Shown here: positions 3,276 to 60,536 of the stretch, piece by piece
Layout: every line of letters starts with the position of its first letter
How positions within the stretch are numbered: the stretch's first letter is position 1
DNA from: a virus
Length of the DNA: 64,000 bases
IMG/VR virus record: IMGVR_UViG_3300014039_000016
Location: 8,829 to 72,828 of that record
Strand: one strand, 5' to 3'
Notes under the pieces: model-generated
Databases searched by the model: none
What the model was told of the DNA's origin: nothing
The model's input: the letters and a program-made list of their open reading frames with translations, nothing else
Program-made: the position numbers and the translations under genes

Positions 3276-3304
3276 TTGACTTATGAAAATTTTTTTGGTA
3301 TAAT
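3276..3304 (+). promoter_or_regulatory. Sigma-A-type promoter: TTGACT, a 17-nt spacer ending in TGG, then TATAAT
   Basis: tccTTGACTtatgaaaatttttttgGTATAATtatt sits about 30 nt upstream of the RBS of the 3335 gene. Both hexamers are near-consensus with an extended -10 TG. Confidence 0.75.
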
Positions 3305-3334
3305 TATTATAAGAATAAGAATAAGGAGAGACTA

Positions 3335-6354: not shown

Positions 6355-7399
6355 TAATAAATTAGTGCATGAACGGTGTGAACCCATTGGTTATGGGGTG
6401 TAGTATAAAGATATACTGCTAACGGTTAGGCTATAAATAAAGTGAGACCGTGCTAAGTTTATATTTTGTTATAAAAAAGTGTAGAGACTATCCAGAGGAG
6501 AAATACGCCTGGTTAGGGCTGAGAATAACCACAGCTCGAAGCGCACCGCAACTTTTTAAAATTTTTGGTCAAAAATATACAATAAAATTGTTCATTTTTT
6601 AATTTTATTGAGGGTATGTATATCCCGGGATAAAACTGAGTTATAGAAAGGAATTAAGAAAATGATTCAATGGAAAAAAAATTTTTATAGATGAAAAAGA
6701 GACTAATTACAGTGTTTCTAGCACTGGAGAGGTCAGAAATGATATAACTAAAAAAATATTATCACAAAGAATTCAACAAGGGTATAAACATGTAACTTTA
6801 TCATTACCAAATAAAATAAAATCATGTCGAGTTCACAGGCTTGTAGCACAAGCCTTTATTGAGAATCCTGAAAACAAACCCTATGTGAATCATATTGATT
6901 GTGATAGAAGTAATAATAATGTTGAAAATTTAGAATGGGTAACACCAAAAGAGAATTCTCAAAAAGCGGTTCTAGAAGGTAAATTTTTAAATAGTTCCCA
7001 TTTAAGACCTGTTGTTCAGTATAGTTTAGCAGGAAAAAAGATTAGAACTTTTGAAAGTGCCATTGAGGCAGCAAGACAGTTAAATTTACAACAATCTAAA
7101 ATAACAGAATGTTGTAGAAGAAATAGAAAAAGAACCGGAGAATATCAATGGAGATATGCAGATGAAGAATGTCTTCAATTAGAACCTATTCAAAAACAAA
7201 ATCGCCCTGGAGTGAAAGTTGCAAGATGCAACGATGATTTAGTTATATTAGAAATTTATAATTCCTATAAAGAAGCAGCAAATGCAATAAAAGGTAGTTA
7301 TCAAGCTATTGCTGCAATATGTAATGGAACAACTATAAATATTCATCATAAAGGCTGGAGATGGAAAAAAGTTGATGATATAGTCCAATCAAACAATGA
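6355..7399 (+). mobile_element. Intervening sequence splitting terL. I interpret it as a putative group I intron carrying an HNH homing endonuclease ORF
   Basis: About 300 nt of structured non-coding sequence (aaagatatactgc and agagactatcc resemble group I S/R elements; tatcccgggata is palindromic) precedes the HNH ORF. The downstream terL frame opens exactly at 7400 with no RBS or ATG. Confidence 0.5.
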
Positions 7400-21015: not shown

Positions 21016-24000
21016 ATGGCAGGAAGAAAAAGAATTGATATTGATATAGGTTTCAATACCGATACCTCAAGAGCAAAAGCTCAAATTCAAGATTTACAGA
21101 AACAGATAGTTAATTTATCAGTTGCCGCAAAACAGAATACAGCAACTAATACTTTATCTTCTGATATTTCCAAAGCTGTAATAGAAGCTAGTAAATTAAA
21201 TGGTATATTATCACAATCAATGACTTTCAAGGGAGATAATCTTGACTTATCTAAATTTGTTACAAACTTAAATAAGTCTGGTACTACTATTTCTCAAGTT
21301 CGTAAGAATTTAGAATCATTAGGTCCTCAAGGTCAAAAAGCATTTACATCTTTAGCGCAATCTATTATGTCTGCGGAAGTTCCTTTAAGACAGTCTGAAG
21401 GACTTTTAAAGAGTTTTTCTACTACTCTTACAAATAGTGCGAAATGGACTGTAGCTTCAGGTGCCGTTCATCAAGTACAGACAGAATTTAGTAAAGCTTT
21501 TGAATATAGTAGAAAGCTTGATAAATCATTAAATGAAATTAGAATAGTATCTGGAGAAAGTTCAGATAATATGGCTAAATTTGCTAAACAAGCAAATGAA
21601 TCTGCCAAAGCTTTAAATACAACAACAACTGCATATACAAATGCGGCATTAATCTTCTATCAGCAAGGTCTTGATACTGCCGCAGTTAAAGAGCGTACTG
21701 ATGCAGTTACAAAGATGGCAAGTGTTACAGGAGAGACTGCTGCAGATGTATCTTCTTACATGACTGCTATTTGGAATAACTTTAATGATGGTTCAAAAAG
21801 CGTAGAATATTTTGCAGATGTTCTTACTGCATTAGGTGCGGCAACTGCATCTAGTACAGATGAAATCGCAGAAGGTCTTGAAAAGTTTGCTTCTATTGGT
21901 AATACTGTAGGTTTATCATATGAATATGCTACTTCTGCTCTTGCAACTGTTGTTGCAGAAACTCGTCAGTCCGCAGATACTGTAGGTACTGCATTTAAAA
22001 CATTATTCGCGCGTATCCAGGACTTAGAGTTAGGCAATACATTAGATGATGGAACAACATTAGGTCAGTATTCTAAGGCTCTTGAAGCTATTGGGGTAAA
22101 TATCAAAGATTCAAAGGGCGAAATTCGTGATATGGACGATATCTTAGACGATATGGGTTCTAAATGGAAGACTATCTCTAAGGATACTCAGATTGCGGTT
22201 GCACAAGCAGTTGCAGGTACTCGTCAGTATAGTCAATTAATTGCCTTAATGGATAAGTGGGATGTTTTCCAAGAGAACTTAAATACAGCTAAAGGTGCGG
22301 AAGGTTCTTTACAACAGCAAGCTGATATTTATGCAGAATCATGGGATGCCGCATCTAAGAAAATAAAAACTTCATTAGAAGAAATTTATTCAAATCTTAT
22401 TGATAGTAAAACTATGGTTGATTTAATGAAATTCCTTAGTAAAGCTATTGAAGGTTTTGGTCATTTTGTTGATTCTGTTGGTGGAGTTAGAACTGCTTTT
22501 ATTTTATTAGCAAATACTATAATTTCTAATCAAGGTCCTCAAATAAGCAAATATGTTGATAAAGTTGTTGATAACTTTAAAATCAAATTTGGTATTATGG
22601 GCAAAGAGATTGAGGCAACTAGAGAGAAAGCTCAAAAAGAATATAAAGCTATGATTGCAGGAATGGATATAAAGACTCCAGAAGACCGTGCACAAGTAGC
22701 TAATATGAAAGCAAATTATGATATTGAAAATGCTATTTTTGAGAAGAAAAAAGAGTTAGCCAAAATAAATGCAAATTTAACTGAATCTCAAATAGAACAA
22801 ATAGCCAATGAAAAAGCTCAATTAAAACAATTAACAGAAGAAGCTGAAGTTACAGCTCAGATTTATGATACTAAAAATAAAGCTAGACATGCTGCGTCTG
22901 ACGATATTTCATCTATTGGTCAGAGATTTAAAAGCACTAATTTATCTTTAGACAATGTAGACAGTAAAAAAATTCGTGAAAAAATTACTTCAGAAGTAAA
23001 TAAAGCTTATTATGCAAAAAATTTACCTGAGAATACTTTACAAGAGCTTTATGCAAAAAAAGTATTATTAGGTGAAGCAGATGAATTACCTAGTGAATAT
23101 TATCTTAGTCAAAACTATAAAGGTATAGATAAGACTAGAGCAAGAAATAGCCGCTATTGGGATATGATACATCAAGTTGACCCTGCAGATGAGAATGGTA
23201 ATTATAGATTCTCAGAAAAAGAACGAAGACCAACAAATAGTGCAAATATTAATAAAGCGGTATATAAATCATACCTTGAAAAATATCGGGATACTAAAAA
23301 GTTAGCTGAAGGTATGGTTAATCCTAATTTTGATGAAGAAGCACAGGAAGCTCTTCAGAATCAATTTTTTGAAGACTACAATGCTGCAGAATTAGCATAT
23401 GCTGGAAATGAAACTAATATTTCTACTAGTAATAAAGTTTTAAATTTATTTGATATGAATAAAGTTAAATCAGGTAAGTTTTCTTTAAAAGATATGCAAG
23501 AAACATTATCTACTCTTTATAATTCTTCAAATGAAAATAAGCGAATGATTGATGACCTTATGAAGTTAAATGAATATAAAAAAGAAGGTAATATTAAAAA
23601 ACTTATTACTGGTCAGAATGTAGCAGGTGTAGATAAAACAGACTATGCTCATATGCTACAGATGATTGAAAATAATAGAACGAGTTATCTTACAAATCGT
23701 GATACTCTTAGCGGTAATCTCAGAGGCGTTTTACAAAATTATGGTTTTGAAGCTACAGATGTTACAAAGATATCTGATGCGCTTGATGAACAACATAAAG
23801 CAATAGAGGCTTCAGATAAGTCTTTAGCAGATTATGTAAAATCTTTATTAGATGTTCAAAATCATTCTAAATCAGTAGTTGACTCTATTAATGAGATGGG
23901 ATTTTCTGTAGGTAGTATCGGCGAGAATTTTGCTAATGGTGCAAATGCTATGAGTAATTTCGCGATGACTGCTAATAGTGCTTATTCTGTTTTTGAATCT

Positions 24001-27000
24001 ATAGAAGAATTATTCTCTGGAGATTTAAAATTAAGTATTGGTTCTATAATTGGACTTTTTACTCAATTAGGTTTTAGTGTGTCTGGTTTTCTTCAAACAA
24101 AGAAATCATTTAATCAATTTTCAAATATGCTTTCAGGAACTATTGGAAATAGAGCCACTTTAAAAGACCAAAAAGCATTAGAAGATAGAAAATATAATTT
24201 AGCAGAAACAAAAGATAATATTGATGCTTCATTTAAAGAATATCTTGAAAAGAAAAGTACATTTGGAAAAGATAAAGGCAAACAAAAGAGATTATCAGAT
24301 TTTACAAGTCTTATAGGTGAAAGTCAAACAATTGATTTGCCAGACAATTTATCTAAGATGAGTGTTGATGAAAGAAAAGATTGGCTTTCTAAAATAAGTG
24401 GCGCGAAAATTGATTCACAATATAGAACTAGAGATTCTAGACTTACAGGAATTACAAAGGGTCTTATTACAAATGATGATGAATGGGCAAACTTTACTGA
24501 AAGTTTGAAGCAGAGAAAAGCTGCTGCGCAAGAAGAACAAGATATTGTAGCAACAACTCAAGCAGTTGAAGGTCGTGGAATTCAAATCGCAAGTAAAGTT
24601 TCAAAGGCTATGGGTGCGATTGGTATCGCGGTTCAGGTTGCAACAACAGCGTATGCCGCTTATAATCTTATTCATAAAGCAGTTGTAGCTAATTTACAAA
24701 AAGAAGCAGAAGAAAGTCTTAGAGTAGCACAAAATACAACAGAAAAGACAAAACAATATAAAGAAGAATCAGATAAAGTTAGTGAATTAAAGAAAGCTTA
24801 TGATGAATTATATAATAAATATAATGATGGAGAATTATCAGCTTCTGCATTAAAGAGACAAAGTTATGACCTTTGTATGCAATATGGTGAAGAAGAGCTT
24901 GCAGTAAAAGCATTAAGTGGAGAGTATAAGAGTCTTGAAGAGGCTATGAAGTCTATTGAAAGTAAAAAGACAGAGAAAACACTTAATTCTGCAAAACAAG
25001 AACAGAAAAACTATGAAGTAGCTCTTAGAGACCAATTAAGTGCAAGTGCCGAAGAAGACGCGGGTAGAAGAGATTTTGTTAATGGAACTGAGACTATTGA
25101 CTTAAGAGGTATGGTTGCAAGAAATTCTAAAGAAAAGAATTTAGCTAGTCAACTTCAAGAATTAGGAGTTCAATTCCTTACAAATGATAAGATTAGTCTT
25201 CAAAGTTTAGCTACTGCAATTAAGACAGATGCAGAAGCAGTTCAATCTGTATTGAATGATTCTGATACTACTGCGGCAAAACAATTAAGACAATATTTAT
25301 CAAGTGCAAAAGACCAGATTGATGGCTTAACAGAATCTATAGATACTGCGCACGAAGCACAAAAGACTATGATTGTAGATGCTCAAAACTTTGATGCTAT
25401 TGATTCTATTGAAGACTATACTACAACATGGCGGAATATGGTTCATGAAGCATTGAGTAAAGGTGTTTATGATTCTATTGAAGATGCTTCAAAATGGGCA
25501 AACTCATATATGTCTGCTATTGATAGTATAAAAGAATATGCTCAAACTGCAACAGTTGCTGATACTATTATGTCTAACACTTCTAAAGATATATTTAAAG
25601 ATATTCAAAATCAGAAGAATGAAATTGATTATACAAGTATTGAAGAGTGGGCAGCAGAGAAGTATGGCGCAGAAGTTCATTATATGAATGTAAAAGACCT
25701 TACTGATGAATTTGAACAAGAAAAAGCAGCAAAGAAAACTGGATTAGAATTAAATAGCTTACAATACTATGAATCTATGACGAAAGCCTTAAATAATTAT
25801 TCTACTTATGAGCAAAGTTTCTTTAGTGATAATTTTTCTCAGTTGCTTAGTGAAGCAATGGAGAAAAACAACAATAATACAGAAAAAGCTTTAGCTTCAT
25901 TAGCAGAAAAGCTTCCTAATGTATTTGAAGGAAGTGCAGAAAAAGGTGAAGCTGATTATGCACAAACTTTAATTGATGGTTTAATTACTGATAAAACAGA
26001 ATTAACAGATAAACAAAAGAAACAAGTTCTTAATACTCTTGATTTTTCAGGTGTTACATCTGAAGGCGTATCAGTTGATGAAAAAACTTTAAATAATATG
26101 GATTATTCTTCTCAAGCTACTCTTATGGCAGCCTTTTATGGCGAGAAGTTAAAATTGATTGAAGAGACTGGTGATGCCGCAAGAGAAGAAGCTCAGTTAG
26201 AAGCTGAGACATATAAGAAAACATATGAATCTCAAATAAATGATTATAAAGATGCTCAAAAAGAGTTAGAATTATTATCAGAAGACTCAGATGCTAATTT
26301 CACTCAAGAGGATATTACTAAATTAGTTGATAAATTTAATGGCAATGATTTAAGTGGTCTTAATGATGATACTATTAAGAACTTAAAAGAGGTTATGGCT
26401 AGTCAAGGTTATGGAAGTGATAATAATGATGTTATAGACTTCTTTAAAAAGCTTAGTAATAAGAAATATGCAGACCAATTAGAGAAACTTGATGATTTAG
26501 TTAAAGACCTTACTGTTGATTCAGATGATTGGAATAAAGTTGTTAAAGCTGGGGAGAAAGCACAAGAGGCTAATAGTAGTGTTATTGATGATATTCAAGC
26601 TGGATATAAGACTTTAACATCTGCCATGAAGGATTATAATGCTAATGGTTACTTTACTATGGATAATCTTCAAGCTATTCTTGAACTTGAACCTAAATAT
26701 CTTTCAGCATTAGAGTGGGATGGAAGTCAATTTAAGTTAAACACTGCTGACTTAAAAGAGATGACTAAAGCTAAACTTGCGGATATGGCAGTAAGTCAAG
26801 CAAGAATTACTGTAGCTAAGGTTGAATCTATTTTATCAAGTGATAATGTAGTTAATGCGGCTATGGAACTAGAGATGACTCAAAAGTTGACTACATCAAC
26901 AATGAGTTATGCAGAGACTTTAATTGCAGAAGCTAGAGGTTTAGCTGCTGCAAATACAGAGCTTCAAAATAATGCCGCAGCAATGCAACAAGTTACCATG

Positions 27001-30000
27001 TACATTGATGCGCAGGAAAATGCAATTGCCGCAATAGGTAATGTTTATGATAATATAGACGCGCATTTTGATAAGATTATGGGTAGTTCTGCTTCATCTT
27101 CAAAGAAGAAATATTTTGAAGATGAGTTCGATAGATATTGGGAGTTTAAGAAGGCTATTGATGAAGTTGCTCATGCAATGGAGCGCCTTGAAGATGAACA
27201 AGATAATTTATATGGACAAGAATTAATTGATAATCTTAATCAAGTAAATGATTTATTAGTAACTCAAAAAGCTAACTATGAAGCTTTATATGAAGCACAA
27301 AAAGTTGAAGCAGAAGAGTTAAGAAGTTCATTAAGTGCATATGGTGCATTATTTGATGAAGAAGGTCGTCTCACAAACTACGCAGATATTACGACATCTA
27401 TGTTTGCTCAGTATGGTAATGTTGATGATTCAGAAACATATGAAGAATTTAAAAAGTATCTTGAGAGATATGATACTCTTTATTATTCTGAAATGGTTGA
27501 TACTACGGATAAGATTGTAGAAGAATCTAAGAAGATACTTGAGAATAATCTTAAGATTTGGGAAACAGATATTCAGATTAATTTAGATTTAAAACAAGCT
27601 GAAAGAGACTGGAATGATTTCTTAAAAGAGATTAACAGAAACTTTAAATCAACATTTAGTGACGCAGGACAAGAGATTGAGTATGCTTTAAAGAAAGCTC
27701 AAACATTTAACTTAGATGATGGAACTCTTGCGAGTGATATTCAGAAAGTTGAAAATATTAATTATGAGATAAATCAATTACAAAATGGCGGAACTAGTGA
27801 TTTATTTAGCTCTTTATCAGAAGCAGAAAATGCTTTAAAAGAAGCTAATAAGACACTTCAAGATGATGCTGAGGAATTATTCTCAACATACGAAGAAGGT
27901 TGGAACGCTTATTTAGAATATATTGATGATGTAGGAACTCATCTTGATAATATCAATAAAAAATATGAAGAATTAAATGAAGAACTTGAACATCAAGCTA
28001 ATTTAATTAGTCTTTTATACGGAGATACAGCTTATGATAAACTTGCTAAATTATATGACACTCAACAAAAGAGTAATTTAGCTCAATTAAAATCTTTAAG
28101 ACAGCAGACAGACTTTTATCAAGCACAATATGAAAAAGCTGTTCAATTAGATGGCGAAGATAGTAAGTCCGCAGAGAAGTGGCTTGAAAAGAAGAGACAG
28201 GCTATGCAGGACCTTCGTTCAGAAGAAGAGACTTACATTAAGACTATTCAAAGTAAATATAATAATACTATTGATAGTATTATTCAAAAAGCTAGAATGG
28301 CTACAAATGGCGGAGTTGATACTGATTGGGCTAGAACTATGTATGATTTAACAAAGACTAAATCAGAAGGTAACTATGATGATGTTGAAAGAGTATATCA
28401 ATTAACTTCATTACAGTCTAAGTGGAATAAATTAATTGCGGATACCACAGGAACTAAGAATCAAGAGAAATTAAAGAAGATTATGGATGAGCAATTAGCT
28501 AATCTTGAAAAGAAAGCTACTTTAACAGAATATGATATTGGTCTCGCGGAAAAGGCACTCGCAGTAGAGCAAGCTAGAATAGCACTTGAGCAAGCTCAAA
28601 ACTCAAAAGATAGTATGAAACTTACTAGAAATGCAGAAGGTAATTGGTCTTATCAATATGTAGCAGATGAAGATAATGTTGCGGAAAAACAACAAGATTT
28701 ATTAGATGCTATTAATGATAAGTATGAATATGTTAAATCCGCAAACCAACAAGCTTTAGAAGATTTACTCCAATATGAAGAAGACTTCTGGAATAAGTAT
28801 GCGGAGATTATGAAAGATGTTTCTTTATCTGATGAAGAAAGACAAAGTAGAATAGCTCAACTTTATGATATGTATTATGGAGAAGAAGGTATTCTTACTC
28901 AAGCTTATCAAGATTCTGCGCAAACACAACAAGATTTAAACCTTGTTACAGCAGAGCAGTTATGGGCGATTTATGAATCAGACCAAGAGAAGTATGCTAC
29001 CATGACTGCCGCAGAACAAGAATTAATAGATGGTTTAAAGAACGGAACTATTAAATCTTATGAAGATATACAAGAAGCTGGTCAAAGAGTTAATGATGAA
29101 AGTCTTGACTATTGGAATACAACTGCACAAGCTATGGCAGACGCATGGAACGCAGATGACGGAATGAGTATTAAATCTCAAGTTAATGAAGCATTAAAAG
29201 ATTGCTCAACCGCATTAGCTGATTATGGCGCAGATGTAGATGTAGGATGCGCAGCCGCAGGTGAAGATTTTACAGATGTAGGTAATGCAATAGATGATGT
29301 ATCTAATGCTATTGACGACTTAGATGGAACAACTGAAGATTATATTGATAATGCAGAAAAATTAATTGATGATTATATAGATAGTTTAAAAGAGTTAGAA
29401 TCTCAATGGAAAGAAGTTAAGTCTATTGTTGAACAAAATATTGAAACTATGAAGAAGTATGAGCTAGCTGCAAAGAGTGCTTCTACTGCTTATAGTCCAG
29501 CTGCTGCAACACCATCAAGTGGAGGTAGCGGAGGTGGAAGTGCAACTGATATTGCAGATAATAATCCTCCGGAAGAGACAGTCCATTATTATTCTGTAGA
29601 TACTGCACCAGATGGAGATGGCTTAGTAGTAACAGTATATGAAAGAACAGGAAATAGTGAAAAAGCAATAGGACGAGATGGGGAAGAACCAAAAGATTAT
29701 AAAGACCATAGAATCAGTTCTGTTTGGGAAGCTAGAGATTATATAAATCAAGTTTTATCCGATAATGGATATGATGAAGAATTAGACCCTAATGTAAATG
29801 TCCAAACAAGTGGTTATAAATATTATTTAGATAATGCACGAGTAAATACATATTCTTTTGATACTGGCGGTTATACAGGAGAATGGGATAATTCAGGCAG
29901 ACTTGCGATATTACATCAAAAAGAATTAGTTTTAAACAAGGATGATACAGAAAACATTCTTAATGCAGTTGAATTTGTTCGTGGAATTGCAAGCTCTATA

Positions 30001-30225
30001 GGAGCTTCATTATTATCTCAACTTGCGGGAATGACAAATGCTACTTCTAGTATTCGTCCTGTTAGTGCCGATTACTTATCTTCTAGTGTTAGTAATGCTT
30101 CTAATAATAATGTTTACAATGTTACTGCGGAATTCCCTAATGCAGAAAGTGTTCAAGATATTAGAGAAGCTTTATTAAGTTTACCTAATTTAGTTAGCCA
30201 AAAAGTTAATGAAAAAAATATTTAA
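21016..30225 (+). CDS. Tail tape measure protein, 3069 aa
   Basis: The N-terminal region matches the conserved TMP core (…AAVKERTDAVTKMASVTGE…FKTLFARIQDLELG…AVAQAVAGTRQYSQLIAL). It has a long coiled-coil and a Gly-rich hinge near the C-terminus. Confidence 0.9.
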   Translation: MAGRKRIDIDIGFNTDTSRAKAQIQDLQKQIVNLSVAAKQNTATNTLSSDISKAVIEASKLNGILSQSMTFKGDNLDLSKFVTNLNKSGTTISQVRKNLESLGPQGQKAFTSLAQSIMSAEVPLRQSEGLLKSFSTTLTNSAKWTVASGAVHQVQTEFSKAFEYSRKLDKSLNEIRIVSGESSDNMAKFAKQANESAKALNTTTTAYTNAALIFYQQGLDTAAVKERTDAVTKMASVTGETAADVSSYMTAIWNNFNDGSKSVEYFADVLTALGAATASSTDEIAEGLEKFASIGNTVGLSYEYATSALATVVAETRQSADTVGTAFKTLFARIQDLELGNTLDDGTTLGQYSKALEAIGVNIKDSKGEIRDMDDILDDMGSKWKTISKDTQIAVAQAVAGTRQYSQLIALMDKWDVFQENLNTAKGAEGSLQQQADIYAESWDAASKKIKTSLEEIYSNLIDSKTMVDLMKFLSKAIEGFGHFVDSVGGVRTAFILLANTIISNQGPQISKYVDKVVDNFKIKFGIMGKEIEATREKAQKEYKAMIAGMDIKTPEDRAQVANMKANYDIENAIFEKKKELAKINANLTESQIEQIANEKAQLKQLTEEAEVTAQIYDTKNKARHAASDDISSIGQRFKSTNLSLDNVDSKKIREKITSEVNKAYYAKNLPENTLQELYAKKVLLGEADELPSEYYLSQNYKGIDKTRARNSRYWDMIHQVDPADENGNYRFSEKERRPTNSANINKAVYKSYLEKYRDTKKLAEGMVNPNFDEEAQEALQNQFFEDYNAAELAYAGNETNISTSNKVLNLFDMNKVKSGKFSLKDMQETLSTLYNSSNENKRMIDDLMKLNEYKKEGNIKKLITGQNVAGVDKTDYAHMLQMIENNRTSYLTNRDTLSGNLRGVLQNYGFEATDVTKISDALDEQHKAIEASDKSLADYVKSLLDVQNHSKSVVDSINEMGFSVGSIGENFANGANAMSNFAMTANSAYSVFESIEELFSGDLKLSIGSIIGLFTQLGFSVSGFLQTKKSFNQFSNMLSGTIGNRATLKDQKALEDRKYNLAETKDNIDASFKEYLEKKSTFGKDKGKQKRLSDFTSLIGESQTIDLPDNLSKMSVDERKDWLSKISGAKIDSQYRTRDSRLTGITKGLITNDDEWANFTESLKQRKAAAQEEQDIVATTQAVEGRGIQIASKVSKAMGAIGIAVQVATTAYAAYNLIHKAVVANLQKEAEESLRVAQNTTEKTKQYKEESDKVSELKKAYDELYNKYNDGELSASALKRQSYDLCMQYGEEELAVKALSGEYKSLEEAMKSIESKKTEKTLNSAKQEQKNYEVALRDQLSASAEEDAGRRDFVNGTETIDLRGMVARNSKEKNLASQLQELGVQFLTNDKISLQSLATAIKTDAEAVQSVLNDSDTTAAKQLRQYLSSAKDQIDGLTESIDTAHEAQKTMIVDAQNFDAIDSIEDYTTTWRNMVHEALSKGVYDSIEDASKWANSYMSAIDSIKEYAQTATVADTIMSNTSKDIFKDIQNQKNEIDYTSIEEWAAEKYGAEVHYMNVKDLTDEFEQEKAAKKTGLELNSLQYYESMTKALNNYSTYEQSFFSDNFSQLLSEAMEKNNNNTEKALASLAEKLPNVFEGSAEKGEADYAQTLIDGLITDKTELTDKQKKQVLNTLDFSGVTSEGVSVDEKTLNNMDYSSQATLMAAFYGEKLKLIEETGDAAREEAQLEAETYKKTYESQINDYKDAQKELELLSEDSDANFTQEDITKLVDKFNGNDLSGLNDDTIKNLKEVMASQGYGSDNNDVIDFFKKLSNKKYADQLEKLDDLVKDLTVDSDDWNKVVKAGEKAQEANSSVIDDIQAGYKTLTSAMKDYNANGYFTMDNLQAILELEPKYLSALEWDGSQFKLNTADLKEMTKAKLADMAVSQARITVAKVESILSSDNVVNAAMELEMTQKLTTSTMSYAETLIAEARGLAAANTELQNNAAAMQQVTMYIDAQENAIAAIGNVYDNIDAHFDKIMGSSASSSKKKYFEDEFDRYWEFKKAIDEVAHAMERLEDEQDNLYGQELIDNLNQVNDLLVTQKANYEALYEAQKVEAEELRSSLSAYGALFDEEGRLTNYADITTSMFAQYGNVDDSETYEEFKKYLERYDTLYYSEMVDTTDKIVEESKKILENNLKIWETDIQINLDLKQAERDWNDFLKEINRNFKSTFSDAGQEIEYALKKAQTFNLDDGTLASDIQKVENINYEINQLQNGGTSDLFSSLSEAENALKEANKTLQDDAEELFSTYEEGWNAYLEYIDDVGTHLDNINKKYEELNEELEHQANLISLLYGDTAYDKLAKLYDTQQKSNLAQLKSLRQQTDFYQAQYEKAVQLDGEDSKSAEKWLEKKRQAMQDLRSEEETYIKTIQSKYNNTIDSIIQKARMATNGGVDTDWARTMYDLTKTKSEGNYDDVERVYQLTSLQSKWNKLIADTTGTKNQEKLKKIMDEQLANLEKKATLTEYDIGLAEKALAVEQARIALEQAQNSKDSMKLTRNAEGNWSYQYVADEDNVAEKQQDLLDAINDKYEYVKSANQQALEDLLQYEEDFWNKYAEIMKDVSLSDEERQSRIAQLYDMYYGEEGILTQAYQDSAQTQQDLNLVTAEQLWAIYESDQEKYATMTAAEQELIDGLKNGTIKSYEDIQEAGQRVNDESLDYWNTTAQAMADAWNADDGMSIKSQVNEALKDCSTALADYGADVDVGCAAAGEDFTDVGNAIDDVSNAIDDLDGTTEDYIDNAEKLIDDYIDSLKELESQWKEVKSIVEQNIETMKKYELAAKSASTAYSPAAATPSSGGSGGGSATDIADNNPPEETVHYYSVDTAPDGDGLVVTVYERTGNSEKAIGRDGEEPKDYKDHRISSVWEARDYINQVLSDNGYDEELDPNVNVQTSGYKYYLDNARVNTYSFDTGGYTGEWDNSGRLAILHQKELVLNKDDTENILNAVEFVRGIASSIGASLLSQLAGMTNATSSIRPVSADYLSSSVSNASNNNVYNVTAEFPNAESVQDIREALLSLPNLVSQKVNEKNI

Positions 30226-30230
30226 AAAAT

Positions 30231-30259
30231 GGGGCAGGAAACTGCCCCAATATTTTTTT
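30231..30259 (+). terminator. Rho-independent terminator (ggggcag gaaa ctgcccc followed by T7)
   Basis: Direct reading. Confidence 0.8.
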
Positions 30260-30329
30260 GGTCAGTTTTAAATAATTTTGCCCAAAGAAAAATTAATTAT
30301 TGTAAGAGATTAAAAGGAGGTTTTACAGA

Positions 30330-35975: not shown

Positions 35976-35994
35976 TGGTGGTCTTATTTTTTTG
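35964..35994 (+). terminator. Terminator (agaccacca gtaa tggtggtct followed by T8)
   Basis: Direct reading. Confidence 0.7.
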
Positions 35995-36062
35995 GTCTAA
36001 AATATGTAATTTATATTTTTTAGATTTTAAATGTAATATAGGATAGGAGGTAGCTTATCTAA

Positions 36063-36515
36063 ATGTTAGCTTTATTGAAATCTTATTCTGTTGGAGAAAT
36101 TATTATCTTCATAGTGATACTTGCTTTGGCGGTAAAGGAAGTTATCTCATTGTATCAATACTTTGCAAAAGGACTTTCTGATAGTTTTAATAACAAATAT
36201 AAAAAACAAGAAAGTCTTAATGATTTAAGTGAAAAGATAAACCAACTAACAATAATGGTTAAACAACTTCAAGAAGATAATAAACAGCAAAATAAGAAAA
36301 TCGAGAACTTAATTGATTCTGATGTACAAGATATAAGAAGTTGGATTGTGCAGCAATATCATGCATGTCAACAAGGAAAACAGCTCGACCCATTTGAAAT
36401 GGATTGCGTTGAAAGAAGATACGCTTGCTATGATAAAGAAGGCGGCAATTCATATATTCACAATCTTGTAGATGAGATTAGAAAAATGAATAATAGTCAA
36501 GAACAAGAGAAATAA
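36063..36515 (+). CDS. Membrane protein with one N-terminal TM helix and a coiled-coil
   Basis: IIIFIVILALAV is a TM segment. A GGAGG RBS. Confidence 0.45.
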   Translation: MLALLKSYSVGEIIIFIVILALAVKEVISLYQYFAKGLSDSFNNKYKKQESLNDLSEKINQLTIMVKQLQEDNKQQNKKIENLIDSDVQDIRSWIVQQYHACQQGKQLDPFEMDCVERRYACYDKEGGNSYIHNLVDEIRKMNNSQEQEK

Positions 36516-43897: not shown

Positions 43898-43909
43898 TTG
43901 GTCAAAGTT

Positions 43910-43939
43910 TTGTAATTTATTAATGAAGATTTTTATATT
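43910..43939 (+). promoter_or_regulatory. Candidate promoter (TTGTAA, an 18-nt spacer, TATATT)
   Basis: It lies between a terminator and the RBS of the 43966 gene. The match is weak. Confidence 0.3.
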
Positions 43940-52384: not shown

Positions 52385-52818
52385 TGACAACAACTGTAAT
52401 AAATAGTTTAACTAAAAAAGCTAAAAATTCAGATATTACATATCAAATTGCGGCAAAGCAATTTCTAGTAGAGCCTTTAAGAGGTTCTACTGGAGTTAAT
52501 AATCTTGAAGAACAATTTTTATTAGGTGTTGATTGTGTAACAACAGAGCAAGAAGATTCTAGTACACATGTAAAGACAATAGTACAAGAATTTAGAAATG
52601 CAGATTCTGTTACAACTAATTATTATACAATCACTTCAACTATACAACCAGAACCAAGTGCGGGATACACTGCCGCATATACTGAGACAGAAAGACATGT
52701 TCTCTCTTTTGTTTCTGCGGCGGGTACTACTACTGTGGCAACTAAAGTTGTATCAAAAAAGAAAGAAAACAATATTACTTCTACTAAGACAGTAATTACA
52801 AACAGTTTGGCGGGTTAA
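52384..52818 (+). CDS. Thr/Ser-rich hypothetical protein
   Basis: ORF whose start overlaps the previous stop. Confidence 0.45.
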   Translation: MTTTVINSLTKKAKNSDITYQIAAKQFLVEPLRGSTGVNNLEEQFLLGVDCVTTEQEDSSTHVKTIVQEFRNADSVTTNYYTITSTIQPEPSAGYTAAYTETERHVLSFVSAAGTTTVATKVVSKKKENNITSTKTVITNSLAG

Positions 52819-52838
52819 AATAACCCGCCTTCTTTTTT
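52809..52838 (+). terminator. Rho-independent terminator (ggcgggtta aaa taacccgcc followed by ttcttttttg)
   Basis: Direct reading. This is the end of the structural operon. Confidence 0.85.
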
Positions 52839-53030
52839 GTAGTTAGCTGTAGTCTAATTTTCTTTGTCAATTCGGACAAGTTTTCACTTTAAAAAATAAT
52901 CGTATGTCTCCTGTTAAATTGCGATTTTCTACATGAATCAATTAAAATTTTCCAAAATTTCGTGACAATTCTACACAAAACACTTAACGCTATTTTTATA
53001 TAGTATTGCAAGGGAAAGGAGAAAAGAAAA

Positions 53031-53438
53031 ATGTATAATCAAATGCCTTATTTTGGTCAACAAGCTCAGTCGCCGTATAGCTTGCCACAATACTACCAGC
53101 AAGCACCAACGCCGCCGCAGTTTGTAGCACCACAACCACAACAACCTGCATTAAAGGGAAGACCGGTTTCATCAATAGATGAGGCTAAAGCCTCTCAGAT
53201 TGATTTTGATGGAAGTTTATATCTATTTCCAGATATCGCTAATAAAAGAATTTATACAAAACAAATAGGTGAAAATGGAATAGCTATAATGAATTCTTAT
53301 TCTTTGCAAGAAGAAATTTCCACCCTTCCGCAAGAGTATGTAACTAAGGAAGAGTTTGACAAGGTTGTTGCGCAATTAAAGTCTCTATTGGAAGAAAGAG
53401 ATAAAAAAGAAACACCAAAAGCAACTATGAGTTTTTAA
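53031..53438 (+). CDS. Protein with a Gln/Pro/Tyr-rich N-terminus
   Basis: ORF with an AAGGAGAAAAG RBS. It is the first gene of a terminator-flanked cassette. Confidence 0.5.
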   Translation: MYNQMPYFGQQAQSPYSLPQYYQQAPTPPQFVAPQPQQPALKGRPVSSIDEAKASQIDFDGSLYLFPDIANKRIYTKQIGENGIAIMNSYSLQEEISTLPQEYVTKEEFDKVVAQLKSLLEERDKKETPKATMSF

Positions 53439-53450
53439 TAGGAGGTTTTA

Positions 53451-53687
53451 ATGAGTAATGGAATAAATCCAATGCAACTACTTGGAATGATTAAAAATGG
53501 TTCTAACCCACAGCAATTAATGCTGTCAATTTTAGAACAGAATCCTAACATGAAGACATTAACAGATTTAGCAAAAGCCAATAATGCAAGTGGTATTGAG
53601 AATTTTGTTAGAAACTATGTTAATAGTCAAGGTGGAGATTTTGATAAAGATTTTAATGCCTTTAAACAAATGTTGGGCGTTAAATAA
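53451..53687 (+). CDS. Small hypothetical protein
   Basis: ORF with an AGGAGG RBS. Confidence 0.45.
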   Translation: MSNGINPMQLLGMIKNGSNPQQLMLSILEQNPNMKTLTDLAKANNASGIENFVRNYVNSQGGDFDKDFNAFKQMLGVK

Positions 53688-53714
53688 ATAAATTTTATAA
53701 GGAGGACAAAAGAA

Positions 53715-54497
53715 ATGTTCAATTCAAACAGTGGTTATTCATTAGCCGATATTGCTGCGGCAACCGGCAATAATAACTGTAACAATGGTGGATGGGGCGA
53801 CGGGAACGCCTGGTGGATTATCATCTTGTTCTTATTCTGCTTTGCTGGCGGATGGGGAAATGGACGAGGTGGACTCTTCGGAGGTTCAGATTCTACAGGT
53901 AGTGGTATAACAGATGGTTATATCTTAACTTCAGATTTCGCTAACCTTGAGAGGAAATTAGATGGAGTAAACAATGGTATCTGCGATGGATTCTATGCTA
54001 TGAATACTGGTATGTTAAATGGCTTTGGTCAGGTAAATAATAATATTACACAGCAAACAATAGCAGACATGCAGAACACTAACGCCGTAACTGCTCAAAT
54101 TACAGCGTTAAGTAATCAGATGAGTCAGTGCTGCTGCGACAATAGGTTCCAGTCTGCGACGCAATCAGCTGACTTAAATTATCGCTTAGCTGAACAGAGT
54201 TGCCAGACTCGCCAGGCTATAGCGGATGCCGCACAGGCAGTAACATTAGGAAATGATGCTAATACTCGTAGCATCTTAGCTGCTATCCAGGATATGAATA
54301 CTCAAGCATTACAAGATAAGATTGCTACTCTTACAGCAGACAATCAGGCTCTTAAGTTTGCTGCTTCTCAGCAAGCTCAGAACGCTTACCTTGTTCATAC
54401 TTTAGCACCAAGTCCAAATCCTGCATATATTGTTCCTAATCCTTATACAGGAAATTATGGATATAATAACTGCGGTGGATGCGCATGTGTAGGTTAA
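53715..54497 (+). CDS. Gly/Trp-rich single-pass membrane protein with a YjcZ-like N-terminal segment, a Gln/Ala/Asn-rich coiled region and a Cys-rich C-terminus (CCC, NCGGCACVG)
   Basis: GGWGDGNAWWIIILFLFCFAGGWGNGRGG. GC is markedly higher than in the surrounding sequence. Confidence 0.5.
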   Translation: MFNSNSGYSLADIAAATGNNNCNNGGWGDGNAWWIIILFLFCFAGGWGNGRGGLFGGSDSTGSGITDGYILTSDFANLERKLDGVNNGICDGFYAMNTGMLNGFGQVNNNITQQTIADMQNTNAVTAQITALSNQMSQCCCDNRFQSATQSADLNYRLAEQSCQTRQAIADAAQAVTLGNDANTRSILAAIQDMNTQALQDKIATLTADNQALKFAASQQAQNAYLVHTLAPSPNPAYIVPNPYTGNYGYNNCGGCACVG

Positions 54498-54513
54498 TTT
54501 AAGGAGGTCTATA

Positions 54514-54936
54514 ATGGAGATTACAGCAAATGCAGTTCAGACAGTAACAGCAAATTCAAATGTAATATTTACAGACACTCCGGTGTCAGGTAATTGCTCT
54601 ATTGTTCACAGAGAAGGCTCAGGTCTCGTAAAATTACGCGGCCTGACTTCTACTCAATGTAGAGCAAGGTTTAGAGCTAGTTTTGGAGCAAATATCGCAT
54701 TGCCAGATGGCGGTACTGCTGGTCCAATTTCAGTAACTATCTCTCTTGATGGAGAACCAATCTCCGCTACTAGGATGATTGTTACACCAGCCGCAGTCGA
54801 TAATTATTTTAATGTTTCTGCGGATATCTTTATAGATGTACCTAAAAATTGTTGTGCTACAATAGCAGTTACAAATACAAGTGGAGTAACTATTTTAGTA
54901 CAAAATGCTAATTTAATTGTTGAGCGAGTAGCTTAA
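54514..54936 (+). CDS. Beta-rich protein of 140 aa with paired cysteines. It may adopt a BclA-CTD/ExsF-like (TNF/C1q-like) fold
   Basis: A loose pattern match (ISLDGEP, TILVQNANLIVERVA) to the exosporium ExsF/BxpB family. High GC. Confidence 0.35.
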   Translation: MEITANAVQTVTANSNVIFTDTPVSGNCSIVHREGSGLVKLRGLTSTQCRARFRASFGANIALPDGGTAGPISVTISLDGEPISATRMIVTPAAVDNYFNVSADIFIDVPKNCCATIAVTNTSGVTILVQNANLIVERVA

Positions 54937-54950
54937 AGAAAGGAGTCCTT

Positions 54951-55496
54951 ATGAATAACTTAAAAAGTATGAAAGAGCAATTAACCAGTGTTGTCCAAGC
55001 ACAAATGGGAAATATGCAAAATGTAAGTGCTAAAGAGTTAGGCGAAGCTGTTGATATGATAAAGGACCTCTCTGAAGCTATTTACTATTGTACAATTACG
55101 GAAGCTATGGAAACAAAAGAAAAGGAAGAAATGCATTATTATACAGACAAGAGATATCCAGATTACTATAGAGATGTAGATAGGGAATACGGAAGAATGT
55201 ATTATGATGATAAACCTAGCGCGGGAACTGGATACACTGGTACACGAATGATGTATACAGAACAAATTCCAAAGACAATGATGCGTGATTCTAGAGAGGG
55301 TAGAAGCGGTATGAGCCGCCGCATGTATATGGAATCTAAAGAAATGCACAAAGATAGTGCTACCCAAATGCATGAGTTAGATAATTATATTAAAGAATTA
55401 GGTAGTGATATCACAGAAATGATAAAAGATTCTACTCCAGAAGAAAAACAAGTTCTTCAACAGAAAATAGCTAATCTCGCTGCGAAGATAAAATAA
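54951..55496 (+). CDS. Tyr/Met/Arg-rich protein
   Basis: The sequence RYPDYYRDVDREYGRMYYDD...RMMYTEQ. Confidence 0.45.
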   Translation: MNNLKSMKEQLTSVVQAQMGNMQNVSAKELGEAVDMIKDLSEAIYYCTITEAMETKEKEEMHYYTDKRYPDYYRDVDREYGRMYYDDKPSAGTGYTGTRMMYTEQIPKTMMRDSREGRSGMSRRMYMESKEMHKDSATQMHELDNYIKELGSDITEMIKDSTPEEKQVLQQKIANLAAKIK

Positions 55497-55813
55497 TGAA
55501 AATAAACGGTATTGATTGGAGGGTCTATTTTGTTGAAAAAGATAATGAAAAATTACAAAGAAGTGATGGCTCATATACCCTCGGTTCATGCGATAATAAT
55601 ACTAATATTATTTATCTTAGAGAGGATTTGTATGGAAGGTCATTAAAGAAAGTCTTATGTCATGAGTTAGCGCATGCGGCAATGTTTTCGTATCAAATTA
55701 ATTTGACATTAGACCAAGAAGAACTAATTGCAGATTTTATTGCAACCTATGGGGAAGAAATTATTGATATTACAAATTTTCTTTTTAATAAGTTAAAGGA
55801 GAGGTCTTATTGA
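55496..55813 (+). CDS. Small HEXXH zinc metallopeptidase-like protein (ImmA/IrrE / SprT-like)
   Basis: The LKKVLCHELAHAAMFSY motif. Confidence 0.5.
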   Translation: MKINGIDWRVYFVEKDNEKLQRSDGSYTLGSCDNNTNIIYLREDLYGRSLKKVLCHELAHAAMFSYQINLTLDQEELIADFIATYGEEIIDITNFLFNKLKERSY

Positions 55814-55829
55814 CCTCTCCTATTTTTTT
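55798..55829. terminator. Terminator hairpin between convergent genes (ggagaggtc ttatt gacctctcc followed by tattttttt)
   Basis: Direct reading. The T-run lies on the + side. Confidence 0.8.
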
Positions 55830-55832
55830 GCT

Positions 55833-58149: not shown

Positions 58150-60450
58150 TCATAATTTTTTATGATTTTCAAATTCCATTAAATCTATTTTAGAATAGTG
58201 TTTTACTCTTTGTTCTGCTTCTTGTCTTTTACCTGGGTTAAATGCAGTTTTATAATCTCCTGTTAGATATCCTGTTACTCTACGGAGTCTTTGTATCTTA
58301 TTACTTTTACAAATAGGACATTCATCTTCAGGTATATATCCGCAATAGCCGCAATCTAAACAAGTGTCATTAGGAACATTAACTGCAAAGTAAGGAATAT
58401 CATGGTCCATTGCATAACTAACTATTGCATCTAACACATAAATATGGTCTTTAATATCTTCTTCTAATTCTACATATGTTATACATCCCGCAGAAGAATA
58501 TCCAGTCAATTGACCTTCTATATCAATTTTATCAAAAGGAGATAATTTTTTCCAAACTGGTACATGAATAGAATTTGTAAAATAATCTCTATCAGAAACA
58601 TTTGGAATTACTCCATATTCTTTCTTAAATTTTTGCATTGCAGTATAACAAAGATTTTCTGCGGGTGTATAATAAACTCCAAAATTTAATTTATATTCTT
58701 CTTTAAATTCATCACATCTTGTTCTAAAAAGTTGTTCTATCTTTTTTGCTAAAGACATACCCTTTTCTGTAGTATGGTCACATCCAATAAGGATTTGTAA
58801 TGTTTCTGCTAATCCAATTTGTCCAATAGCAAGAGTTCCATGTTTTAAAGCACTTCTAATACCTTCTTCTGGAACATATCCTGCCATAACATTATTTTCA
58901 TATACGAATTTTGCAGATGCGGGATTCTGAGAACAAATCCACTCAAATCTTTCAATCAGCATATCCTTTGCTTCATAGATTTTTTTATCTAATAAAGATA
59001 TAAATTGTCTTATATTTTCTTTAATTTTTTCTTCATTATCATCATCTAATTTCTTATATACAGGTAGGTTATTTGTTCTTTCTTTTGCTATCATGGCTAA
59101 AGTTGGTAAAATAATAGTTACAGGACATATATTGCCTCTTCCATCCTTTAACTGACCGAATCCGTTAATATCCCAGCCATTGGCAGTCCTACATCCCATT
59201 GTAGAGAAATAAGTTCTAGGGTCATTGATATCATATCCAGCATTTCCGCTCCAATCAACATTTGCATAATTTGGATATAATCTCTTAGCTGTAGACTTTA
59301 AAGCTAATTGATACAAGTCATAATTTGGCTCTCCTTCTGCTCTATTAACCCCCTTCATGCATTGAAATATGCCACAAGGGAAAATTGGAGTTTTATGTAA
59401 TTTTCCTACTCCTTTTAAGCTACCTTCTAGTAAAGCTTTAATAACCATTCTACCTTCTGGAAGCGTACAAGTACCATAATTAATTGAAGTAAACGGTAAT
59501 TGATTACCTGAACGAGATTGTAATGTATTCAGATTATGATACATTCCTTCAACAGATTGTTGAATTTCTTTTTCTGTCATATCTATTGCATATTTATATG
59601 CTTTAGGAAAACTATTTTCCCAAAACTCATTATAAATACTTCTTTCACCATCAGTTTTCTTCATAGTAAAAATTTCTGAATCTGTTCCATCATTTTCGCA
59701 ATAAACAACTCCATCTCTATAATGCTTCCAAAAACTCTTTCTTACATATGGAACCATTGTCCAATCTAGGTGGGTCGCGCTGACACCTCCAAATTGCTGT
59801 AGAGACTGAAGCTGAAAAATAACAGCAAGTAATTGAAATGCTGTACTTATACTATTTGCAGGTCTAATATCTGTTTGACGAGTATTAAAACCATTTGCAA
59901 GTAAATCATCAAAAGGAATTGATAAACAATTAGGATTACCAACAGCATAACTTCCTAAATCATGAATATATATTTCATTATTTAAATGATTTTCCCTTGA
60001 TTTCTTTGACACGATTTCATTTAGTGCTATATCTTTAGTTTGAACTTCATTAGCTTCGCCCATTCGTCCACCAAAAGAATGTTCATCTACATTTGCATTT
60101 TGATTAAGTACTTCATCAGCCATTAATTTTTTAATAACTGCTTTTCTTAATTCTGTTTTTTTAGTTCTTTCTATATTTCTTTTTTCACGAAATAGTATAT
60201 AAGATTTTGCCACATCTTTTCTTTTTGTTGACATAAGACCTTTTTCAACATAATCTTGAATTTCTTCTATTGTTAAAGTTTTTTCTTCTGCAATATCACT
60301 GATATAGTCTGCGATATTACCAGCTTTTTCAATAGCATAATCATCTACATTACCATTGTCAACATCTTTAAATGCGGCAAGTACAGCATCAATAATCTTA
60401 TTTCTATCAAATTTCTGTACTCTTCCATCTCTTTTTATAATAGTTTTCAT
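58150..60450 (-). CDS. nrdD: Anaerobic ribonucleoside-triphosphate reductase (class III, NrdD)
   Basis: An N-terminal ATP-cone, the C-terminal Zn-ribbon CLDCGYCG...CPIC and the glycyl radical motif RRVTGYLTG. The GGAGG RBS selects the ATG at 60450. Confidence 0.9.
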   Translation of the reverse strand: MKTIIKRDGRVQKFDRNKIIDAVLAAFKDVDNGNVDDYAIEKAGNIADYISDIAEEKTLTIEEIQDYVEKGLMSTKRKDVAKSYILFREKRNIERTKKTELRKAVIKKLMADEVLNQNANVDEHSFGGRMGEANEVQTKDIALNEIVSKKSRENHLNNEIYIHDLGSYAVGNPNCLSIPFDDLLANGFNTRQTDIRPANSISTAFQLLAVIFQLQSLQQFGGVSATHLDWTMVPYVRKSFWKHYRDGVVYCENDGTDSEIFTMKKTDGERSIYNEFWENSFPKAYKYAIDMTEKEIQQSVEGMYHNLNTLQSRSGNQLPFTSINYGTCTLPEGRMVIKALLEGSLKGVGKLHKTPIFPCGIFQCMKGVNRAEGEPNYDLYQLALKSTAKRLYPNYANVDWSGNAGYDINDPRTYFSTMGCRTANGWDINGFGQLKDGRGNICPVTIILPTLAMIAKERTNNLPVYKKLDDDNEEKIKENIRQFISLLDKKIYEAKDMLIERFEWICSQNPASAKFVYENNVMAGYVPEEGIRSALKHGTLAIGQIGLAETLQILIGCDHTTEKGMSLAKKIEQLFRTRCDEFKEEYKLNFGVYYTPAENLCYTAMQKFKKEYGVIPNVSDRDYFTNSIHVPVWKKLSPFDKIDIEGQLTGYSSAGCITYVELEEDIKDHIYVLDAIVSYAMDHDIPYFAVNVPNDTCLDCGYCGYIPEDECPICKSNKIQRLRRVTGYLTGDYKTAFNPGKRQEAEQRVKHYSKIDLMEFENHKKL

Positions 60451-60536
60451 TAGAACCTCCATTATTTTTATATTTTTGAGTCTATAAATATATAACTTTT
60501 ATATAATAAAAGTTATATACTTTTGACCAATGGAAA

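Follow-up and report, generated by a model that had tools for sequence, protein, structure and literature searches.

The window analysed here is a stretch of 64,000 nt from a virus (IMG/VR record IMGVR_UViG_3300014039_000016, positions 8,829 to 72,828), and our subject is a cassette of six closely packed plus-strand open reading frames (ORFs), g1 to g6, that lies at 53031-55813 and is flanked on both sides by intrinsic terminators (interval 52840-55830; Table 1). An earlier sequence-only reading had described the six ORFs and their insulation, and both descriptions stand: all six are where it placed them on the plus strand, and a terminator scan recovered both terminators, the downstream one between convergent genes. 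Comparison with relatives shows that the cassette is a real, mobile, and tightly conserved five-gene core, accompanied by an interchangeable peptidase-like gene of two unrelated types. Within the window, AGGAG-type ribosome-binding sites precede g1 through g5, the start of g6 overlaps the stop codon of g5, and the cassette genes contain no in-frame stops. The GC content is 0.37-0.40, versus ~0.30 in the surroundings. Together with the two terminators and a 212-nt leader carrying promoter-like elements, this gives the cassette the predicted features of a moron (own promoter and terminator, deviating composition).

As a unit, the cassette is discrete and insulated by terminators, and its proteins are uncharacterised and unusual in composition. 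None of the six matched a curated family (Pfam, NCBIfam) or a PADLOC defence model, and a PHROGs scan placed g1, g3, g4, and g6 in families of unknown function. Because at least 7,986 homologues of g4, at least 7,517 of g3, and 627 of g1 were found, these three are real genes and not chance ORFs. No signal peptide or lipobox start was seen in the sequence of any cassette protein, and an N-terminal hydrophobic stretch, also read directly from the sequences, is missing from g1, g2, g4, and g5. It had been proposed that the codon bias of g3 and g4 resembles that of the capsid genes. This is partly right: GC content at third codon positions (GC3) is raised in g3 (0.33), as it is in g5 (0.29) and g1 (0.25), but not in g4 (0.19), compared with 0.255 in the capsid-like gene and 0.13-0.17 in tail genes.

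Proteins of the cassette

The g3 protein matches phrog_16490 (1.5e-29). The alignment (A2) of its homologues (counted as clusters at 90% identity) has a conserved N-terminal peptide, an invariant WW that opens a 12-residue hydrophobic core between Gly/Trp/Asn-rich linkers, the block TDGYILTSDFANIERKIDG, an invariant CCC, one more conserved Cys, and a tail of the form P.P.PAY.VPNPY that ends in CGC. The features previously picked out in the window's own protein are all present, namely WWIIILFLFCFA at aa 33-44, CCC at aa 139-141, and NCGGCACVG at aa 252-260. The insertions and deletions in the helical part are either 7 residues long (23 of them) or 11 (9 of them), a pattern that fits a continuous coiled coil. 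The AlphaFold2 (AF2) monomer model is poor (predicted local distance difference test [pLDDT] score of 46), yet it is helical over residues 76-230. What the alignment shows is a predicted single hydrophobic anchor followed by a long coiled-coil rod with conserved cysteines. No holin family in Pfam or PHROGs matched g3.

Proteins of the g3 type that share this anchor, the CCC, and the Pro/Cys tail are found more widely: in many crAss-like phages (where GenBank labels them “spike protein/glycoprotein”), Bacteroides phage C3_41T2LP, phage csAssE-Sib, and two viruses assigned to Methanomassiliicoccales. In the wider bacterial-phage group, g3 is followed by a 136-180-aa beta-rich protein with Cys pairs, a ~165-aa protein, and a small Arg/Tyr/Glu-rich protein, and HEXXH proteins flank the set. 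The Bacteroides-type and archaeal-virus-type g3 proteins (locus L001, 4575-5471; L002, 4560-5477; L056, 4878-5759) have longer N-termini with ..KGVDPNLMAML.., which by eye resembles ..NPMQLLGMIKNGSNPQQLMLSIL.. of g2.

The g4 homologues (also clusters at 90% identity) are ~70% identical and nearly all ~140 aa long. A profile search of 1.84 billion representatives returned 845 clusters (50% identity), of which the best 150 are 77-196 aa long, with no long N-terminal extension, no stalk fusion in general, and no g3-g4 fusion in particular. The AF2 model of g4 is confident (pLDDT 87.6), and the whole 140 aa make up the domain. The nearest solved folds are those of F-BclA, BclA, and ExsFA, all exosporium or appendage proteins, at 16%-18% identity. 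The model has the ten-strand jelly-roll of C1q, TNF ligands, and BclA, and, going by this modelled fold, g4 adds a new sequence family to the TNF/C1q/BclA-CTD superfamily. The “loose resemblance” to BclA-CTD/ExsF suggested before is thus a true fold relationship, with no counterpart at the sequence level: there was no Pfam match at E≤1, no NCBIfam match, and no match of the family profile to a PDB chain at E≤10. The protein has no signal peptide, an invariant CC pair, and the C-terminal sequence NANLIVERVA. Stand-alone 130-143-aa proteins of the g4 fold from gut sipho-, myo-, and podovirus genomes are found in BFVD, where the fold matches alone hint at the g4 fold in “Podoviridae” proteins. 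We also asked whether g4 is homologous to the beta-rich proteins of 136-180 aa found after g3 in crAss-like and Bacteroides phages, and neither hhalign nor a broadened hidden Markov model gave a significant result.

Both g1 and g5 consist of short helical or globular parts, which are conserved, and low-complexity stretches rich in Tyr. In g1, a Q/P/Y-rich N-terminus (aa 1-42, with 11 Q, 9 P, and 5 Y, bearing out the earlier description) precedes a conserved small domain and a C-terminal helix; the protein matches phrog_21718 (unknown function, 7e-6), and none of its homologues has a Pfam domain or a source name. In g5, which had rightly been called Tyr/Met/Arg-rich, a helical N-terminal domain and a C-terminal helix enclose a Y/M/R/D-rich middle (aa 61-135, with 11 Y, 10 M, and 10 R). 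A Pfam scan of g5 gave noise-level matches only, and the version in small phages (phrog_28802) has an RGG/Y-rich middle. The g2 protein is N/L/M/Q-rich and probably helical, without a family match in Pfam or PHROGs (the small-phage version is phrog_22984), and the resemblance seen by eye hints that it may work together with the N-terminus of g3.

The last protein, g6, had been read as a HEXXH peptidase, and the motif is indeed present (HELAH, aa 56-60). It matches phrog_1233 (5e-17) and comes close to the Pfam families DUF6782, SprT-like, and Peptidase_M78, the three scores (24.2, 24.1, and 21.7 bits) each being just under the cut-off (27, 25.6, and 22). We regard it as a predicted minimal HEXXH zincin and an accessory part of the cassette. 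In small phages there is instead, upstream of g1, an unrelated 128-aa Cys/His protein, C128 (phrog_3754), with the invariant motif GDC...RA and a later H..D..WDSG.

Gene order in relatives and the phage context

Relatives were drawn from 44 loci in species-representative genomes (all metagenome-assembled contigs, mostly assigned to Clostridia), 160 IMG/VR loci, and annotated phage and plasmid records. A search for the cassette in other phages and prophages, as had been suggested, found it widely, including 159 loci with non-identical g4. It is over these 159 that synteny was counted, and because many are close relatives, the counts are not independent. The g3 gene lies directly upstream of g4 in all 156 assessable loci, g4 is followed by a g5 homologue in 159/159, and g1 is present in 150/159. 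A syntenic counterpart of g2 was seen in 78 of the 80 loci of each IMG/VR set. A g6-type zincin occurs in 70 loci and C128 in 77, and the two are together in none. In IMG/VR, one g4 profile found 422 loci and a second at least 589; these sets may overlap and are not additive.

Two arrangements recur. In large phages (70-260 kb) the order is tail fibres, in some cases a phrog_13712 “holin,” then g1-g2-g3-g4-g5, the zincin, and convergent RuvC/dUTPase genes. In ~40-kb temperate phages it is endolysin, holin, C128, g1-g2-g3-g4-g5, c113, and then an integrase on the opposite strand or host genes. The small-phage arrangement is represented in two cultured settings. One is Butyrivibrio virus Ceridwen; no other cultured phage in the phage collection has g4. 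The other is a prophage of Vescimonas fastidiosa MM35, a human-gut member of the Oscillospiraceae (NZ_AP023416.1, ~251.4-254.5 kb; locus L220), in which the complete cassette lies at the prophage end beside host lactate-utilisation genes, in the order holin, amidase, C128, g1 to g5, c113, host genes. Across phages with unrelated structural modules (~40 kb vs. 150-260 kb), g4 is 60%-70% identical, and we therefore conclude that the cassette has been transferred horizontally. Conservation of the cassette is unusually strong, as phages of these two size ranges have nothing else in common.

Two further observations concern the g3-g4 pair. A GC-rich hairpin, which could set the ratio of g3 to g4 expression, stands in the g3-g4 spacer of relatives of both flavours (L105, 6949-6976; L171, 6951-6976), and the window's spacer is 16 nt long with no hairpin. 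In locus L053 (5138-6573), the pair lies amid bacterial genes (transporters, oxidoreductase) with no further phage genes within 12 kb; this is probably a prophage remnant, possibly a domesticated copy.

Table 1. Features of the cassette and its boundaries (positions in the 64,000-nt window)
Feature	Position	Strand	Description
Upstream boundary terminator	52809-52838	+	End of tail-fibre operon; 9-bp stem, 6 GC pairs, then T-run (hairpin 52809-52829 in terminator scan)
Promoter-like leader element	52958-53014	+	TTTCGTGACAA, ~23 nt, then ATTTTTATATAGTATTGCAAGGG; degenerate copy of the TTGGTCW ... ATTTTW bipartite motif
g1	53031-53438	+	135 aa
g2	53451-53687	+	78 aa
g3	53715-54497	+	260 aa
g3 hydrophobic anchor	53811-53846	+	WWIIILFLFCFA, flanked by G/W/N-rich linkers
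g3 invariant CCC	54129-54137	+	
g3 Pro-rich tail	54408-54494	+	With terminal Cys cluster
g4	54514-54936	+	140 aa
g5	54951-55496	+	181 aa
g6	55496-55813	+	105 aa
g6 HELAH	55661-55675	+	HEXXH motif, invariant in 15 relatives
Downstream boundary terminator	55797-55829	both	Between convergent g6 (+) and RuvC-like (-) genes; 10-bp hairpin, 6 GC pairs, T-run (hairpin 55797-55821 in terminator scan)

The plus strand of the window encodes a portal protein, a sigma-like protein, a tape measure protein (PhageMin_Tail domain), and tail-fibre proteins, and the minus strand encodes RuvC, dUTPase, NrdD, and DNA polymerase. The exact g3 protein was also found on gut-metagenome contigs of 137-156 kb. The nearest cultured relatives of the portal are those of large Bacillota siphoviruses (Enterococcus EF1/EF5, Brevibacillus Sundance, Bacillus PBC2 and Kirov, SPbeta-like, and Clostridioides phages), and because these infect Bacillota, the host is very probably a gut member of that phylum.

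Several other features of the window should be mentioned. The tape measure (21016-30225 region) is 3,069 aa long, which implies an exceptionally long tail, and is followed by a 1,811-aa protein without a family match. The nrdD gene is intact in the window (58150-60462, 770 aa) and is split in two by an HNH_3 endonuclease gene in the near-identical loci L004 (10472-12783) and L005 (10475-12783). Between 6355 and 6884 there are 530 nt with no listed ORF of at least 60 aa. The 3' part is in frame with the GTG-start ORF at 6885 and looks like a homing-endonuclease-type N-terminus, so this gene probably starts earlier than listed. Finally, a 150-aa protein at 36063-36515 (phrog_4257) has an N-terminal membrane segment and a coiled coil, with a weak match to the PADLOC model “SAVED_TM” (1.1e-4). 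A member of the same family (cluster c145) lies on the opposite strand right after the cassette peptidase in many relatives, and the window's protein could be a relocated lysis-related membrane protein.

Expression timing, the lysis-proximal slot, and rival explanations

A bipartite motif, TTTTTGG(T)CAAAA followed after ~28 nt by ATTTTTATATAnTAaTGaAAG, is present in the g1 leader of the window and of divergent relatives, although its upstream half is degenerate in the window's own cassette leader. It is also found after terminators ahead of structural-gene blocks, before the window genes at 6885, 30330, 36063, and 44178, and its strict form (TTGGTCW-N20-34-ATTTTW) occurs four times in the window versus 0.66 times expected. 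These copies (6565-6607, 30257-30300, 35992-36029, and 43898-43934) lie just past the T-runs of terminators. The phage's own sigma-like factor may recognise this motif as its class of promoter, and we infer that the cassette leader belongs to this class. A sigma-factor-like gene (phrog_5767, 2.8e-50) is present at 3335-4417, behind a near-perfect host-type promoter at 3277-3334 (TTGACT, 17 nt, TATAAT, with a TG extension), and could be an early gene able to redirect transcription to the bipartite motif. Scans of the 212-nt leader for a regulatory RNA found neither an Rfam family nor a tRNA, and there was no structure signal (z +0.49).

In a 255-kb relative, the g3 homologue (L008, 8001-8789) has an in-frame TAG at codon 93 that is read as Gln in the source gene call. 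In-frame TAG also occurs in the g1 N-termini of L071, L077, L079, L088, L110, and L115. The cassette genes with in-frame TAG come from contigs of 255-260 kb and from some IMG/VR contigs, and part of the phage lineage therefore appears to have recoded TAG to Gln. Stop-codon recoding is reported to cluster in late genes for structure and lysis (PMC10136315). Given the strong ribosome-binding sites, the raised GC3, a leader like the motif of the structural blocks, and the recoded TAG in a relative's g3, we infer that the cassette is expressed late.

The genes most often found upstream bear on what the cassette may do. With five holin families as queries, a holin-like gene was found no more than 4.2 kb upstream, on the same strand, in at least 78 of 133 assessable loci, which is a lower bound because only those five were used. 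As many loci are close kin, the informative point is not the count itself but the recurrence beside unrelated holin families: Phage_holin_1 (7.7e-30), Phage_holin_4_1 (2.4e-31), phrog_13712 “holin” (3.7e-30), and, as a fourth, the Dulem-virus type. In the crAss-like cr116_1, a g3-type cassette lies ~1.2 kb past an annotated holin and an L,D-carboxypeptidase. The cassette usually occupies the lysis-proximal slot of the late region. The idea of a “novel lysis module,” raised in the sequence-only reading as one alternative, thus gains from synteny, the cassette coming directly after holin genes of several unrelated families in relatives, but no holin stands ahead of it here. The claim that the window holds no holin or endolysin agrees with partial tests (none was found by tblastn with the relatives' lysis genes or by Pfam scans of the tail genes), but the window covers only ~40% of a ~156-kb genome.

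The best explanation, in our view, is a conserved, horizontally mobile, late-expressed accessory cassette of Bacillota (Clostridia) phages, and the function we tentatively favour for it, while holding it to be far from assured, is that of a membrane-based accessory egress module. In such a module, g3 would oligomerise, probably as a trimer, into a stalk set in the infected cell's cytoplasmic membrane. The g4 protein would probably also be a trimer (going by its fold, as the model is of a monomer); together with the other proteins that lack signals, it would be made in the cytoplasm and would join g3 there or once the holin opens the membrane. That g3 and g4 associate is supposed because of their invariant gene adjacency and for no other reason. 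The peptidase would process one of the cassette components, and the assembly would target the membrane or envelope when the holin triggers or shortly afterwards, in a role comparable to that of spanins or of PBSX XhlA/XepA; it would be neither a component of the spore coat nor a part of the virion.

A number of points weigh against an egress role. The link to lysis comes only from synteny, and a terminator parts the cassette from the holin or holin-like gene in L105 (5280-5300) and, as annotated, in Ceridwen, so that the cassette is its own transcription unit (L105 has a matching bidirectional terminator downstream, at 8297-8340). In the window it is a tail-fibre operon, not a holin, that precedes the cassette, and in Bacteroides phage C3_41T2LP, Dulem virus 39, and csAssE-Sib the neighbours are replication, integrase, or antirepressor genes rather than lysis genes. 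The Pfam scan found no peptidoglycan-hydrolase domain in the cassette proteins, and both flanks of the g3 anchor are almost uncharged, so topology cannot be assigned from sequence. The small phages already encode complete holin-endolysin pairs, and textbook lysis of single-membrane hosts requires no third component. The interval between the lysin gene and the attachment site is, moreover, the classical place of conversion (moron) genes in temperate Gram-positive phages.

From this last point comes the strongest rival, which we consider doubtful: the position may merely reflect the usual place of moron genes, the cassette being cargo unrelated to lysis, an independently transcribed unit that builds a membrane-anchored fibre and knob for, e.g., superinfection exclusion, adhesion, or aggregation. 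Insulation by terminators on both sides, in the window and in relatives, fits well with this, as do the elevated GC content, the place at the prophage end beside integrase or host genes in temperate phages, and the evidence of horizontal transfer (~60%-70% protein identity between phages with unrelated structural modules). However, the structural-block-like leader of the large phages and the recoded TAG in relatives' g3 argue for expression late in the lytic cycle, any structure exposed outside the cell would need an unexplained export route for g1, g2, g4, and g5 (none of which has a signal peptide), and the PADLOC defence models gave no match. Also unlikely, and somewhat more so, is a place in the virion, whether as a fibre or decoration made of g3 and g4 or with g3 as a pilot protein that is ejected and inserts into the membrane, g5 being an internal protein, rich in Arg/Tyr, that the peptidase cuts. 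Although the window's cassette comes directly after tail-fibre genes and has capsid-like GC3, and the g3-type cassette of cr116_1 sits between the small terminase and capsid genes, in ~40-kb temperate phages and in the Vescimonas prophage the cassette follows holin and endolysin, outside the structural module. In addition, an adaptor that has to dock on a particular virion would not be expected to keep 60%-70% identity across phages whose capsids and tails are unrelated, as g4 does, so strongly hydrophobic an anchor is unusual in a fibre, and g4 is without a stalk fusion among the best 150 of its 845 relatives. In the structural atlas of crAss001, the head fibres (gp21, gp29) are different small proteins, and the g3/g4 family is not mentioned (PMC10172136).

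A very improbable alternative makes g3 a membrane-fusing protein with true homology to the class I viral fusion proteins (influenza HA2, coronavirus S2) or to i-spanins. The order of a hydrophobic segment and then two long helices would suit such a role, relatives carry the spike label in GenBank, crAss-type g3 matches coronavirus HR1 weakly (E ~0.1), and the g3 profile reached E 0.01 at best against HA2 chains (DFANIERKIDxxNxxxxDGF against EFSNLERRIDNLNKRMEDGF). The PDB sequence search nonetheless gave g3 nothing beyond coiled-coil matches at noise level, and the HA2 lead from it was rejected because an unrelated coiled coil, monopolin Csm1, scores alike in the same search (E 0.021) and the two HA2 alignment pieces overlap in the query. 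There is also no gene for a lipoprotein partner, the portal's relatives infect single-membrane Bacillota, and the AF2 model of g3 is too poor for fold comparison. Least probable of all, and only marginally credible, is the headline of the sequence-only reading, spore-surface cargo, in which phage exosporium- or coat-like proteins (a BclA/ExsFA-like knob, a Cys-rich lattice, a Tyr-rich coat-like protein) are laid on the host spore from the mother-cell cytoplasm. The nearest solved folds of g4 are what one would expect in that case, soluble cassette proteins without signal peptides are like coat and exosporium proteins, Cys- and Tyr-rich compositions recall those of the ExsY/CotY and CotG types of spore protein, the assigned hosts are mostly Clostridia, and the phage has a sigma-factor-like gene. 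But the full cassette is present in Ceridwen, a phage of Butyrivibrio fibrisolvens, which does not form spores, and members of the g3 family that share the CCC and the Pro/Cys tail occur in phages of Bacteroides, in crAss-like phages, and in Methanomassiliicoccales-assigned viruses. Furthermore, no sporulation-family model matches (BclA, ExsF, and YjcZ included), collagen-like repeats are absent, and placement and promoter type point to a late lytic programme.

We return, then, to the accessory egress module. A broader version of it, which is speculative and on balance unlikely, is that g3 and its jelly-roll partner are the core of an unrecognised membrane machine common to gut phages of Bacillota and Bacteroidota (including crAss-like phages), possibly also of archaea. 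The machine would be a coiled-coil spike that is anchored in the membrane, stapled by cysteines, and topped with a TNF/C1q-like head, and it would form a new class of egress or membrane-remodelling system beyond holins, endolysins, and spanins, acting on the cytoplasmic membrane as the single structure common to all of these hosts. Whatever its role, g3 and g4 are among the commoner “dark” genes of gut phages. Should the cassette serve egress, holin and endolysin would not give the full account of lysis in single-membrane hosts, and the lysis region could be marked in the many gut phages in which lysis genes are difficult to recognise; as cargo, the cassette would be a phage-borne trait very common among gut Clostridia. 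The cassette is experimentally accessible in the Vescimonas fastidiosa MM35 prophage and in Butyrivibrio phage Ceridwen.

Comparison with known systems

In the literature on BclA/C1q-like phage proteins, TNF-like lysis proteins, the crAss “spike protein,” and the cultured phages, we found no functional description of the cassette. It is thus a gene module without a described counterpart, and the function proposed for it here, from sequence and synteny, is unproven.

With BclA, ExsFA, and F-BclA, g4 has the C1q/TNF-like jelly-roll in common, but at low identity and without a sequence-profile match. BclA carries a collagen-like GXX stalk, whereas g4 has none and is not fused to one in its best 150 relatives. 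Unlike the exosporium proteins, g4 is phage-encoded, occurs also in phages of non-spore-formers, and has a membrane-anchored coiled-coil protein as its fixed partner. The likeness of g3 to YjcZ, a tiny Gly-rich membrane peptide, proved to be compositional only: g3 has 260 aa and a large coiled-coil domain, no NCBIfam or Pfam model for YjcZ matched at E≤1, and the NCBIfam scan at that threshold returned one unrelated noise match. By their list of parts, g3 and g4 resemble a split version of a membrane-anchored TNF-type ligand or a viral spike. In type II membrane ligands such as ectodysplasin A these parts are joined, and here they are in two genes. However, the stalk of such ligands is collagen and that of g3 a coiled coil, g4 has no export signal, and there is no sequence similarity. 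As for g6, it shares HEXXH and near-threshold scores with the SprT, ImmA-IrrE (M78), and DUF6782 zincins, but its scores clear none of the curated cut-offs, its length is only 105 aa, and other phages have an unrelated Cys/His protein in its stead.

By context, the nearest precedents would be XepA/YomS and the spanins. XepA (PBSX) and YomS (SPbeta) are non-enzymatic beta-sandwich oligomers without signal peptides, encoded with the holin and endolysin genes of Bacillus prophages, and a membrane-directed action has been proposed for XepA (PMC6834076). They are pentameric and of a different fold, with no sequence or fold relation to the cassette proteins, and XepA is a single gene, whereas the cassette is a five-gene set with a membrane-anchored partner. 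In outline, g3 recalls the i-spanin of the lambda Rz/Rz1 pair, with a predicted N-terminal anchor, two predicted long helices, conserved cysteines, a Pro-rich end, and a place near lysis genes; it differs in its larger size, in having no lipoprotein partner in the cassette and no detected homology, and in belonging to phages of single-membrane Bacillota hosts.

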